Shown one piece after another: positions 21,340-29,649 of a stretch of DNA of 59,807 nt (position 1 is the first letter of the stretch; each line of letters begins with the position of its first letter). The position numbers and the translations under genes are program-made. The stretch spans positions 10,214-70,020 of the forward strand of contig CAYSKJ010000002.1 in assembly GCA_964431655.1 (NCBI GenBank), in the 5' to 3' direction. The notes beneath the pieces were generated by a model that made no database searches, was not told the DNA's origin, and saw only the letters and a program-made list of their open reading frames with translations. The DNA comes from an uncultured bacterium. GTDB taxonomy: Bacteria; CAYMEV01.

Positions 21340-24300
21340 TTATCTAATATTTATTTTGAGTCTGTCAATCATCAGCTTATACTCATGATTCCTGCTTTTC
21401 GTATAGAGCTCATCAAGGCCTTTTAATGCTTTTGCTCTGCAGTTTTCAGAACCATTGAGAATATAGATTTCATAGTTTGCAAGTGCATTTGCCAGCAGGT
21501 CTTTTCCATGATTTTTAATGAGATTTCTTAAGGTATTCAATGCACTCTTTTTATCACTAAGAGCATTAATCTTTGCAAGGAGTATTTGCGAATCCAGCAG
21601 GAATCTTTCATTTGCCAGCTCCTGCGCAATCTTCTGAGCCTCAGAATTAAAATGGACGGCTGTCTCATAATCCCCGCTTTCAAATGAGATTTTGGCCCTT
21701 TCAATAAATAAAGCACATGTATCATATCTTACATTTACCTTTTTTGAAAGCTTTACTGATTTATCAATATAGCGCGATGCAATTTGAAGGTCATTTATTA
21801 TCCTGTAAATAGAGGCAATATTGCAGTATGCAAAACTTTCGGCCTTATAATCGCCTAATTCCTCTGCAATTCTGGCACTGGCCTTGTATAGCTCAATCGA
21901 TTTCTTATAACTGCCTTTCTGTTTATATAACAGGGCTTTGTACGAACTGATTTCGCATAATGCAGGTCTGTCGCCTATTTCTTCGGCTATTTTCCTGCTT
22001 TCTTCCATATATTCAAGGCTTTTCTTAAAATCGCCTTTTTCAATCAGTGTTTTGCCTATATTTGCTGTCGAAAGTATGATTCCCTTTTTGTTTCCAATCT
22101 CTTTTGCTGTTTTCAGCTGTATCTCAAAGTTTATTAATGCTTCATCAAGCCTGTCCATATCATAATATAATACCCCTATGTTCCCTGTGATAAGACCCAG
22201 GCCCAATTTATCTCCAATCTCAGCAAACAGGGTTTTGGCCTTCTCATAGCGTGCTAATGCTTCTTTCATATAGCCCTGGATATGGTATAGGATTCCAAGG
22301 TTGCCGTTTACCGTGCTTAAATTGCCCTTATCGCCTATCTCTTTGGATATTTCTTCTTTCATAAGATAATATTTTAATGCTTTGCCCATATCGCCGGTGT
22401 TTGAGTAAATGCGCCCTATACTGCCCAGCGCGCTGGCTGAATTCCTTTTATTTGCGTTTTTTAGAGCAGTTTCATAGGATGATTTAAAATACTCCATAGC
22501 CTTATCATATTTTCCCTGCTCAACATAAGCATTACCCATATTGCCTGAAGCTGAACTGACAGCATCCATATCGCCTGCTTCCTGGGCAGAATTAAGCTGA
22601 TTCATGAAGTACTGCCGCGCCTCATCATATTTATTCTGACGGAAATAGAGCTTTCCCATATTTCCGTAGGAGATTGCCATTTCATTTTTATTGCCGGTCT
22701 GCTCAGCAAGCTCAATAGTCTCTCTGCATAGCTTATAGGCCTCTTCCATCTCTCCTTTCATGTGGAGCGAATGGATAAGCTGGTTTTGATACCTTAACTG
22801 ATATATTTTGCTGTTCATGTCTTTCGCTTTTTTTATCAGTACCTTTAAGTCCCGCATGCACTGATCTGTTCTGCCGGTTAGATCAAGTATATCAATCCTG
22901 TAATAATTATATTCAAAGACCTTTTCGTTTTCATCACACATCTGCAGTAATGCATCAAAGCATTCCAGCGCTTTCTGATTCTCAAACCTTTTTTTGAAAT
23001 AGACGGCTGACTTGTTATAATATTCAATTGCTTTGCTCTTTTCTTCTGCATTATAATAATGATATGCAATCTCATAATATTTGTTCTCAGTATCCTTGTA
23101 AGCTCCTTCAATGGCCCTGGCTGCATATGAATGGAATTTTCTCAGCATTGACTTAAGCTGCATTTCATAAGCTGTTTTCTGCAGAAGCGCATGTTTGAAC
23201 ATATATTTGAGCAGGGACAGCTTCATCCATATGTTCTTATTCTCCAGCTGTTCGAGCTTTTCCTGTTCTTGAGCTGTTCCCGGAAACAGACTCAGGTTTT
23301 GTATAATCTCCATGAGTATGGCTATCTCAAACTCCCTTCCAAGTACTGACGCGACCTTCACTATCTGCTTTAAATCTGTTTCAAGCCTGTCAATCCTTGC
23401 AATGATTATCGAATAAATGCTTTCTGGAATTGATATATCCCGCAAGGCTTTGCCCATAAGCCTGTTTTCCTTGATATACTGGATTATCTGCTCAAGATAA
23501 AAGGGATTATTTTCTGCTTTTGAAATAATCAGCTTTTTCAGGGGTTCATCTGCTTTAATATGTTCATTAATCAATGATTCAGCTTCCTTATCGTTAAGCC
23601 TGTCAATGACTATCTCACGCTGTATTATCTCCTTGTCCACATTCAAAACCGGCCTTCCGCCATCATCACTGAAACGGCCTGTTCCTGCAATCATAAAAGG
23701 ATAATCATTTCCCGACCTGCATAAAAGCCTTAATACATCCTGACTGCCTTCATCCAGATACTGAATGTCTTCTATGCATATTATCAGTGGCTTCAGCAGG
23801 CTTAATCCCTTTAACAGTTCATTATAGGCTGTCACAGTGTTTTCATACCTGCCCCTGGAGTCAAGGGATGAATAATAGGAATCATGGATGTCCAGACCCA
23901 GCTGTGCTGATATTACTGGCTTCAGCCTGACAAGCTCGCTCAGTATATTATCAGCCCTGGCATCCTTCAGTTTTTTAAGGCCTTTCAGTAAACGGCCATA
24001 GATCAGATTGAACTGCTCTGGATCTGATTTTCCTGACTGCCTGAAATAGTTCAGGGCAAAATACCTTAAAGGGTTGAAGCTTGTTTTTAGCAGACTATCC
24101 GACTGCATGACTGCAGAATATGCATTTTCGTTCCTGGAAAATTCCTCAAGCAGACGGCTTTTGCCAATTCCAGCTTCTCCGTAGATGATTGTAATGCCTC
24201 CGAATCTTCCGGCATATATCATTTCTGCGCTTTCTTTCAAGATTTTTAATTCGTCCTGCCTGCCTATCATTTTGTTCCTGCAGAGGGCCGGGCCCTGACC

Positions 24301-28600: not shown

Positions 28601-29649
28601 TAGACATTACCCTTCGCCAGCCCTAAAGCCAACAGAGGAACATTAGTTACTGCCTCAATAGAGAAGCGGCAGATACGCTCCAGGGTTTTCTCCTCGCTTA
28701 TGGGCATGCCGAAAAGTATCAGGGCTACCATCCCTTTATCCGTAGCATCATATCTCGCGACAAATCCGCCGTATTTATCAGCCAGCTCCTGTATAGTTCC
28801 GATAGCTTCCTGCCTGTCTTTAACAGCTATCCTGCCCAGATTGGCAAAACAGAAGGCAGCGGGGCGGATCTCAGGCTGGGGACTCTCTATCTGGTATTTC
28901 GGGTTAATAAAACCTGACATGGCGGTGCTGTATCCTGAACATGCATATTTTTTTTCTGCAGCTCCATATTCTTTGATTTTTGTGTTTCCAGAGTAGATAT
29001 ATCCGTTTTTTTTGATTTTCAAGAAGCATTTTAACCCGATCTGACCTGCTGCATCTTTTGAAAAGACAAGGTCCTTTTTCAGGCCTGAAAGCTTTGCCAG
29101 GTCTTTTAAGGGTTTGCCATAAAAGACATATTCATTCTGCAGGCTGTTTTTGAATATCTTCCATTTAATCTCTCCATAGGATACGGTCTGCCTTATTTTT
29201 AATCTGATATCAGTAATAGAACTGCGATACTGACATACTGCTTTATCCCTGGAAAAGTTTGTAATCTTTATAACAGCATTAAGTATCCTGTTTTTATCGC
29301 TCATCATACCACTGTTATGACAGGATTCTGTTTTTTCCGCTTTTCCAGGTTCTGAATCCTGACTCCCGGATCCGGCTTCACCTGTGTTGGGAAAGACGGC
29401 ACAGAAGGCATCGCCTGCGAAGAGCGTCACAAAACCTCCATAAGATTCAACGATCCGGATAGGCTCGCCAAAGGCATGGTCAAGAAAAGCCCTTAGTTCC
29501 TCTGCACCCTGTTTGCCATGCTTGCTGAGCTGATTTGTTATAGGTGTAAAATCAGCAATGTCAAAAAACAGTGCAAAGCCGGAGAATTTGCCCTTAAGGA
29601 TATTGGCTTCATATTGCCGTAGAATAAACCTGGGTATATAACGCATCAT
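25675..29649 (-). CDS. Paralogous giant: tandem cyclase homology domains, a STAND/AAA_16 NTPase and about 10-11 kinesin-light-chain-type 42-aa TPR units
   Basis: CHD1 FFDIADFT / [10 protein letters not shown]. CHD2 [15 protein letters not shown] / [13 protein letters not shown]. Walker A GNAGIGKS, Walker B [13 protein letters not shown]. Repeats such as [46 protein letters not shown] precedes the ATG. Confidence 0.88.
   Translation of the reverse strand: [1324 protein letters not shown]
25760..27070 (-). repeat. About ten or eleven tandem 126-bp (42-codon) coding repeats, the TPR array of the 1324-aa protein
   Basis: Periodic protein repeat ...GK.HP.VA.SLNNLA.LY..QG.Y.EAEPLY.RSL.I.EK.L... 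The antisense track ORFs at 26112-26423 and 26595-26909 are themselves internally repetitive. Boundaries are approximate. Confidence 0.8.

Follow-up and report, generated by a model that had tools for sequence, protein, structure and literature searches.

The window analysed here is a stretch of 59,807 nucleotides from an uncultured bacterium (GTDB lineage Bacteria; CAYMEV01), corresponding to positions 10,214 to 70,020 of the forward strand of contig CAYSKJ010000002.1 in GenBank assembly GCA_964431655.1; positions given below are those of the window. On its minus strand, two adjacent, co-oriented genes, here called gene 1 and gene 2, encode very large proteins that combine class III cyclase homology domains with a nucleoside triphosphatase (NTPase) of the signal transduction ATPases with numerous domains (STAND) type and a long array of tetratricopeptide repeats (TPRs). 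Both products are likely to be bacterial full-length homologues of soluble adenylyl cyclase (sAC, ADCY10). The following features were located in the two genes.

21340–25482, minus strand: gene 1, sAC-like cyclase/STAND NTPase/TPR protein, 1380 aa from the corrected start M27
24907–25431, minus strand: C1 cyclase homology domain of gene 1 (aa ~18–192), with both metal-binding Asp (HLDITGF, FAGDAF) and without the Asn/Arg pair
24307–24810, minus strand: C2 cyclase homology domain of gene 1 (aa ~225–392), without metal Asp (VFISI)
22993–24270, minus strand: STAND P-loop NTPase and helical arm of gene 1 (aa ~405–830), AAA_16
24157–24180, minus strand: Walker A motif of gene 1, GEAGIGKS
23767–23784, minus strand: Walker B motif of gene 1, IICIED
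21343–22992, minus strand: TPR region of gene 1, ~9 units with a 40-aa period (TPR_12, TPR_MalT) and a C-terminal helical extension
25675–29649, minus strand: gene 2, paralogous sAC-like cyclase/STAND NTPase/TPR protein, 1324 aa
28390–29586, minus strand: tandem C1-C2 cyclase domains of gene 2 (C1: FFDIADF, FAGDAF; C2: FCFANL, ATDKG)
27139–28344, minus strand: STAND NTPase and arm of gene 2, AAA_16, aligned with gene 1
28234–28257, minus strand: Walker A motif of gene 2, GNAGIGKS
27859–27879, minus strand: Walker B motif of gene 2, VVIHLDD
25678–27072, minus strand: TPR region of gene 2, ~10.7 very regular 42-aa TPR_10/NPHP3/kinesin-light-chain-like units

The open reading frame (ORF) listed for gene 1 spans 21340–25560 (minus strand, 1406 aa). 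Its start is most likely M27 (nt 25482), which would yield a protein of 1380 aa, because an AGGA sequence lies just upstream of this codon, an orthologue (P0001, 81% identical) begins at the equivalent codon, and the alignment of gene 2 to gene 1 runs from M1 of gene 2. Apart from this shift, the two giant, co-oriented minus-strand ORFs reported in a preliminary description of the locus are present, and its layout of cyclase, STAND/AAA_16 and TPR modules was recovered by matches of both proteins to the Pfam families Guanylate_cyc, AAA_16 and TPR and by the Walker motifs. Its interpretation of the genes as old paralogues agrees with the identity of 27% over 1014 aa between their products, and the difference it had seen between their TPR types was reproduced by autocorrelation, which peaked at 40 aa for gene 1 and at 42 aa for gene 2. 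Gene 1 is also more AT-rich, as had been noted by eye, with a GC content of 0.407 and a GC content at third codon positions (GC3) of 0.427, vs gene means of 0.451 ± 0.024 and 0.509 ± 0.048, respectively. This shift is mild and mainly located within the STAND and TPR parts, and the codon-usage distance of gene 1 is at the upper end of, yet inside, the range of other long genes. A foreign origin of gene 1, considered on the basis of GC, GC3 and codon usage, was rejected, the only deviation being this mild AT shift, which derives mostly from TPR and STAND composition. Gene 2 showed an average GC content (0.444) and a GC3 of 0.448, ~1.3 standard deviations under the gene mean. The spacer between the genes measures 192 bp; a scan of it revealed no convincing terminator, and its promoter-like matches are consensus hits that carry little weight in this phylum. 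No transmembrane segments were found in the two proteins.

The preliminary description had assigned a single class III cyclase module to each protein. Its identification as a cyclase was correct, but the module consists of two tandem cyclase homology domains, of which Pfam detected just the C-terminal half of one. In a phmmer search against the PDB, human and rat sAC ranked first (E 1e-18), and gene 1 gave two ordered matches, with query residues 44–228 aligned to sAC C1 (residues 35–227) and query residues 251–415 to sAC C2. An AlphaFold2 (AF2) model of gene 1 residues 27–445, built on a 54-sequence alignment, reached a predicted local distance difference test score (pLDDT) of 92.2 and a predicted template modelling score (pTM) of 0.88. 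When this model was compared with the PDB by Foldseek, the best 24 matches were all human sAC, with template modelling (TM) scores of 0.77–0.81 over ~454 columns and E-values of 1e-28 to 1e-33. Human sAC was followed by membrane adenylyl cyclases (C1-C2 cores), and single-domain bacterial cyclases spanned only half of the model. As judged from the modelled fold and its Foldseek matches, the predicted structure of the cyclase module is that of a tandem C1-C2 pseudo-heterodimer formed within a single chain.

Conservation of catalytic residues was analysed in an alignment of 118 relatives, with human sAC numbering as a residue ruler. The ruler was a human ADCY10 sequence used, over positions 1–468 only, for residue numbering; its specificity and metal residues fall at their published numbers, and the stretches printed by phmmer agree with it. 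Equivalents of sAC D47 and D99, the metal-binding Asp residues of C1, and of N412 and R416, the transition-state residues of C2, were invariant (118/118 relatives) and were present in both window proteins, each of which also has Thr at the position of T405. In C2 of gene 1, Arg, Thr, Asn and Arg occupy the positions of K334, T405, N412 and R416, respectively (EYTALSDTVNQAAR). C2 lacks the metal-binding Asp residues and C1 lacks the Asn/Arg pair, and these complementary residues therefore indicate that each protein has a single active site, the other being degenerate. Immediately behind the C1 strand with the second metal Asp, gene 2 additionally contains a low-complexity insert of ~30–40 aa (aa ~84–125, window ~29275–29400), which is missing from gene 1 and from most relatives. 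A family motif, RGxAIDGCAxxEH, with a nearly invariant Cys, was found in the degenerate half-site of C1, the place where sAC binds bicarbonate; its version in gene 1 is RGEAIKNCIENQ (aa ~147–157, window ~25012–25044). This site may be a regulatory pocket.

Similarity to sAC was not confined to the catalytic core. A database search supplied ADCY10 proteins, entered as adenylate cyclase type 10, from pig, bat, lizard and shark, and these entries carry Pfam AAA_16 and TPR_12. Comparison by hhalign of the family profile with pig ADCY10 (P0125) gave a probability of 99.95% and an E-value of 1.4e-37 over 765 columns, covering sAC residues 36–958. BLASTP aligned gene 1 with this pig protein in a single collinear high-scoring segment pair (gene 1 22–813, sAC 39–979, E 3e-30), which spans the P-loop, Walker B, the NPFY/PFY-x-E motif, an RIDRL-like helix and an F-x-x-x-x-x-Q/E-K/x-x-A-Y-E helix. 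Mammalian full-length sAC (sACfl) and the window proteins thus share, on one soluble chain, the module order C1, C2, P-loop STAND NTPase with helical arm, and TPR-type repeats. By sequence and by fold sAC is their best PDB match, with the C1 Asp pair and the C2 Thr, Asn and Arg kept. They differ in that identity is ~21%, K95 and R176 are absent from the window proteins, K334 is replaced by Arg, and the TPR arrays of the window proteins are far more regular. The alignment stops at the arm; the sAC region beyond it, including a proposed haem domain, lies outside the alignment. Published descriptions of sAC likewise comprise C1-C2, a P-loop/STAND domain and TPRs (PMC10668965, PMC6660944, PMC12802110), and bacterial sAC is reported to carry the P-loop domain as well (PMC10668965 and PMC6660944, citing Kobayashi, Buck & Levin 2004).

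The NTPase region of gene 1 contains conserved NPFYxEQ, RIDRL and F-H-ALL-x-x-YE motifs that are common to ADCY10. Its AF2 model (pLDDT 87.6) matched MalT first (8bob_C, TM ~0.5), followed by Apaf-1, the archaeal STAND-TPR protein 6mfv and CED-4, while an Avs-type filament (AVAST5) appeared at rank 37. Pfam TPR_MalT and AAA_16 both scored above their cut-offs, and the TPR array of gene 2 gave 448 bits in 11 stretches for TPR_10 and 355 bits for TPR_NPHP3. With Walker A, Walker B, a modelled nucleotide-binding oligomerization domain (NOD) and helical arm fold, and C-terminal repeats, the NTPase is predicted to be a STAND protein of the MalT clade, in line with the comparison with MalT/AfsR-type regulators made in the preliminary description.

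Based on domain identity, fold, conserved catalytic residues, collinearity with ADCY10, family size and genomic contexts, all observed here, we consider it likely (probability roughly 0.78) that the products of gene 1 and gene 2 are cytosolic, bacterial full-length homologues of sAC. This key identity, namely that of full-length homologues of eukaryotic sAC with a C1-C2 pseudo-heterodimer, had been missed in the preliminary description. Both proteins join an already recognised, large family of signalling enzymes. A search with gene 1 residues 27–821 yielded >2000 proteins at E≤1e-10, of which the best 120 were nearly all 1250–1390 aa long, contained the same three Pfam modules and bore no annotation beyond 'tetratricopeptide repeat protein' or 'adenylate/guanylate cyclase domain-containing protein'. 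The tandem cyclase alone retrieved 1230 representatives of 50%-identity clusters at E≤1e-30, and one peptide pattern matched 563 relatives in species-representative genomes. Phyla with relatives in the pattern search included Sumerlaeota, Cloacimonadota, Gemmatimonadota, Spirochaetota, Bacteroidota (many of them Saprospiraceae), Marinimicrobia, WOR-3, Fermentibacteria, Chloroflexota and Acidobacteriota. The closest relative of gene 1 was found in a Sumerlaeota metagenome-assembled genome (MAG), at 79–81% identity, and individual MAGs hold 3–4 family copies. Family size, phyla, number of copies per genome and neighbouring response-regulator (REC)/histidine-kinase genes are typical of signalling sensors. 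In a Candidatus Hatepunaea MAG (L039, 1315–10408), a 749-aa cyclase-AAA_16 ORF is followed by four overlapping ORFs of ~570–610 aa that cluster with the TPR part of the family; this array could be a fragmented or an expanded repeat region.

Other characterised proteins share part of this architecture. MalT of E. coli, the paradigm of ligand- and ATP-dependent STAND switching, is the closest structure to the NTPase module, but its output is a C-terminal LuxR-type DNA-binding domain and it has no enzymatic N-terminal effector. In Mycobacterium tuberculosis Rv0386, Rv1358 and Rv2488c, a class III cyclase is joined, as here, to a STAND NTPase of the MalT type and to TPR repeats. Each has only one cyclase domain, which must homodimerise, and carries a DNA-binding domain at its C-terminus, whereas the window proteins have tandem C1-C2 domains and no helix-turn-helix (HTH). 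Kobayashi, Buck and Levin are said to have described, in 2004, three Chloroflexus aurantiacus enzymes with two catalytic domains and long sAC-like C-termini. They belong to another phylum, and the Chloroflexus enzyme is reported to be bicarbonate-stimulated (PMC11006738, citing Kobayashi et al. 2004), while the window proteins lack the bicarbonate residues of sAC. The M. tuberculosis architecture of cyclase, AAA_16 STAND, TPR and LuxR HTH has been discussed in 10.1101/2024.03.06.583649.

Several observations weigh against the reading of the pair as sAC-like signalling enzymes. The two bicarbonate-site residues are not kept: the position of K95 is Gly in gene 1 and Leu in gene 2, that of R176 is Ile and Ala, respectively, and in the 118-relative alignment these positions are mostly Y/G and A. 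Because of these replacements, the hallmark bicarbonate regulation of sAC probably does not apply to the window proteins; their loss concerns the regulation of sAC, not fold or homology. The base-specifying Lys (K334) is Arg in both window proteins. Across the 118 relatives, this position and that of T405 covary, with Glu/Ala in 53, Lys/Thr in 17, Arg/Thr in 11 and Leu/Thr in 8, and together with the Arg in the window proteins this covariation means that ATP is not assured as substrate. No receptor for, or domain binding, cyclic nucleoside monophosphates (cNMPs) was found among the window ORFs scanned against Pfam, as the preliminary description had already remarked of cNMP-binding effectors. 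Even in mammalian sAC, moreover, what the STAND region does has yet to be explained (PMC12802110). Finally, a block comprising gene 1 and the following small gene has unrelated flanks on both sides in the Sumerlaeota MAG, which leaves some room for mobility.

20512–20877, minus strand: V4R-like gene, 121 aa, 462 bp downstream of gene 1; Pfam V4R E 9e-4, under the curated cut-off

The block shared with the Sumerlaeota MAG is 4.8 kb long with 81% nucleotide identity and includes part of the spacer (window 20515–21154 and 21354–25517; L004 9958–14888); its change of flanks could reflect rearrangement or a two-gene transfer. The V4R-like gene had been flagged in the preliminary description, and a V4R match was indeed obtained, albeit one below the curated cut-off. 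Its copy in the MAG, 88% identical, adjoins gene 1 orthologue P0001. As a general partner of the family the V4R-like gene was rejected, since it occurred beside no other family member in the loci analysed (≤10 kb on each side). From this distribution, the V4R-like gene is possibly a lineage-specific partner and not a demonstrated part of the system.

With regard to the product of the cyclases, the base-specifying positions (window 24454–24675 in gene 1 and 28528–28746 in gene 2) carry Arg/Thr in both proteins. A product other than cAMP, either cGMP or another cyclic nucleotide, has a precedent in Dictyostelium, whose soluble guanylyl cyclase SgcA is an sAC homologue with sAC-type architecture that makes cGMP; a substrate can therefore not be assumed within the sAC-type family. 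Besides the Arg that replaces the adenine-specifying Lys, the frequent Glu/Ala pair of the relatives, which is reminiscent of guanylyl cyclases, and the presence of guanylyl cyclase Cya2 (2w01) among sequence matches to C1 would fit such an output. However, at the second specificity position both proteins share Thr with sAC and the other class IIIb adenylyl cyclases, Arg is able to mimic Lys, and the Glu/Cys pair typical of guanylyl cyclases occurs in neither window protein. Because of the Thr at position 405 and the Arg as a Lys mimic, the predicted product is probably cAMP, and a different output is considered unlikely. For the family, the covarying pairs suggest sub-clades that differ in nucleotide specificity. 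It is less likely again that the two proteins act not as independent sensors but as an obligate pair, either in a hetero-oligomeric STAND complex or as a sensor and helper like paired nucleotide-binding leucine-rich-repeat receptors (NLRs). Consistent with such a partnership, only a short spacer without a convincing terminator separates the genes. The arrangement in which nqr is followed by two small ORFs, gene 2 and then gene 1 recurs in three contigs of other metagenomes that match the window at 99.9% identity, and about 7 of the 81 loci contain a second family copy no more than 10 kb away. In the closest relative (81% identical), however, the gene 1 orthologue stands without an adjoining gene 2 counterpart. 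Relatives of gene 2 above ~33% identity were absent from 80 loci, its best matches elsewhere (28–33% identical) were not specifically 'second' copies, and most family members are single. One population has gene 2 split into two predicted ORFs, with gene 1 intact. Given the few loci with a nearby second copy and the absence of gene 2 beside the closest orthologue, pairing recurs without being conserved, and its probable cause is local duplication as the sensor family expands.

An anti-phage role had been raised as a hypothesis in the preliminary description. Under this reading, an Avs-type TPR-STAND protein would sense phage proteins and, through its cyclase, produce a cyclic nucleotide that triggers a suicide effector, as in the pyrimidine cyclase system for antiphage resistance (Pycsar) or the cyclic-oligonucleotide-based antiphage signalling system (CBASS). 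The order of effector, STAND and repeat sensor is indeed that of Avs proteins, the cyclase shares its class III-like fold with Pycsar, gene 1 is mildly AT-shifted, and the block of gene 1 and the V4R-like gene occupies a different neighbourhood in the closest relative. PADLOC, applied to the two proteins, returned only a generic TPR model and short, partial PycC matches (29.6 bits over ~64 aa in gene 1; 22 and 18 bits in gene 2), which cover only the segment common to all class III cyclases, and no Avs, bNACHT, CBASS or full PycC match. Neither the two proteins nor the 46 window ORFs matched a PADLOC model of a CBASS cGAS/DncV-like nucleotidyltransferase (CD-NTase) or effector, and no gene for a Pycsar effector, such as PycTM or PycTIR, or for another cNMP-binding protein adjoins the pair. 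Avs proteins carry a cell-killing effector at the N-terminus (nuclease, protease, SIR2, TIR and similar), vs a cyclase here; unlike Avs and Pycsar systems, the pair has no model-level match, toxic effector, cNMP-activated partner or defence-island context. Its NTPase fold is nearest to MalT rather than to Avs, and the family is collinear with eukaryotic sAC.

Genomic surroundings also argue against defence. The window contains leuS, a dgt-like HD hydrolase gene, PBP1, a REC-kinase gene, a rib operon, nusB, nqrBCDEF, a DinG-like helicase gene, leuCD-like genes, metG, and electron transfer flavoprotein (ETF) and NuoF-like genes; it is housekeeping throughout, and no tRNA, integrase or transposase was found in its 59.8 kb. 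Among the 46 window ORFs, PADLOC matched the DinG-like helicase and the dgt-like protein and gave weak matches, none of them adjoining the pair. For the 233 nearest neighbours in 78 related loci, only isolated matches were obtained, with no recurrent defence or effector partner; overall, the isolated or generic PADLOC matches comprised DinG-like helicase, dgt-like dGTPase, ABC-ATPase cross-hits, DolB and single PD-T4-4, PDC-S01, PDC-S05 and PDC-S23 matches. When every ORF lying ≤10 kb from a family gene was clustered across 81 loci, no partner gene common to the family was found. Recurrent neighbours were lineage-specific housekeeping genes, REC/histidine-kinase genes (12 loci) and ABC ATPases (10 loci). 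A downstream beta-propeller gene is common to 16 Bacteroidota loci, mostly from Saprospiraceae, and subsets of these also share aspS, a sucB-like E2 gene, an S9 peptidase gene and DUF5916; the Saprospiraceae neighbourhood of aspS, sucB-like and S9 peptidase genes is stable core synteny. Such stable synteny beside ordinary metabolic genes, without association with defence, is what the preliminary description itself had named as speaking against its proposal, and a role of the pair in anti-phage defence is therefore regarded as highly improbable.

Some further observations concern the surroundings of the pair and of its relatives. In one of the near-identical contigs (L085, 5912–9886, equivalent to window 25675–29649), the two ORFs called for gene 2 measure 598 and 680 aa, and the sequence differs by four mismatches and one 3-nt gap, being otherwise 99.9% identical; the split may be genuine or may stem from misassembly. 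A TPR ORF upstream in the Sumerlaeota locus was considered as a gene 2 remnant and rejected, as its product is unrelated and has a hydrophobic N-terminus resembling a signal peptide. In a 'Thermotogae' MAG (L003, 14133–16746, same as L006), two paralogues flank HD-GYP, DUF3307 and GAF-HD-GYP genes, a second-messenger setting that may be a cyclic-nucleotide signalling cassette. Within the window, the DinG-like helicase (35812–38358) has a weak RadC-like N-terminal match and a match to PADLOC typeIV_DinG (2.5e-119), and the match to the PADLOC dGTPase model (1.3e-83) most likely stems from the HD/HD_assoc dgt-like protein (4807–5949); the two proteins resemble homologues with housekeeping roles, and partner genes were not found for either. 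The nqr-type cluster (31144–35013) encodes subunits B, C, D, E and F but lacks nqrA; a glycosyltransferase gene in divergent orientation adjoins nqrB on its upstream side, and two small ORFs without Pfam match (30173–30610 and 30644–31135) follow nqrF. An Rfam scan of the whole window gave no match at gathering thresholds, and the ribD-ribE-ribBA-ribH-nusB operon (13139–17033) showed no Rfam flavin mononucleotide (FMN) riboswitch.

For the pair as sAC homologues, we infer a working model that concerns the product, the activating ligands, the mechanism of autoinhibition or oligomerisation and any cooperation between the two proteins. In the catalytic core, C1 would supply the two metal-binding Asp residues, and C2 would contribute Asn and Arg for the transition state together with the residues that contact the base. 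The TPR array would bind a ligand, which may differ between the paralogues because their TPR types differ (40-aa vs 42-aa units). By analogy with MalT and Apaf-1, ligand binding would lead to nucleotide exchange in the NTPase and to a conformational or oligomeric switch. Such a switch might then relieve inhibition of the cyclase, as suggested by the lower activity of full-length sAC than of its truncated C1-C2 form, which has been attributed to a C-terminal autoinhibitory element (PMC3918592, PMC11006738); in mammalian sACfl, no effect of nucleotides on activity was found (PMC12802110). The freed cyclase core would raise the concentration of a cyclic nucleotide, most likely cAMP, acting as an ordinary second messenger. 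The pair would accordingly represent two sensors with similar output in the signal-transduction repertoire of the cell and not an antiviral module.

The pair itself thus consists of ordinary members of a large recognised family, and its interpretation as a defence system should be dropped. Covariation at the two base-specifying positions predicts diversified nucleotide specificity among sAC-type cyclases. A bolder proposal, which as a whole we regard as a long shot, is that the clade (Sumerlaeota, Cloacimonadota, Bacteroidota, Spirochaetota and others) could provide a tractable prokaryotic model for STAND-TPR sensing by sAC, in which the window pair would be two differently tuned sensors that may co-assemble, and Glu/Ala, Lys/Thr and Arg/Thr would mark sub-clades making different cyclic nucleotides, Arg/Thr being a so far uncharacterised type. 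Drugs for male contraception are among the uses for which soluble adenylyl cyclase serves as a target, and what the STAND/P-loop and repeat region does in the mammalian enzyme is still unexplained (JBC 2025, PMC12802110). The value of the present finding is comparative: the bacterial proteins keep this region of sAC collinearly, and could ease its expression, structure solution and ligand screening.

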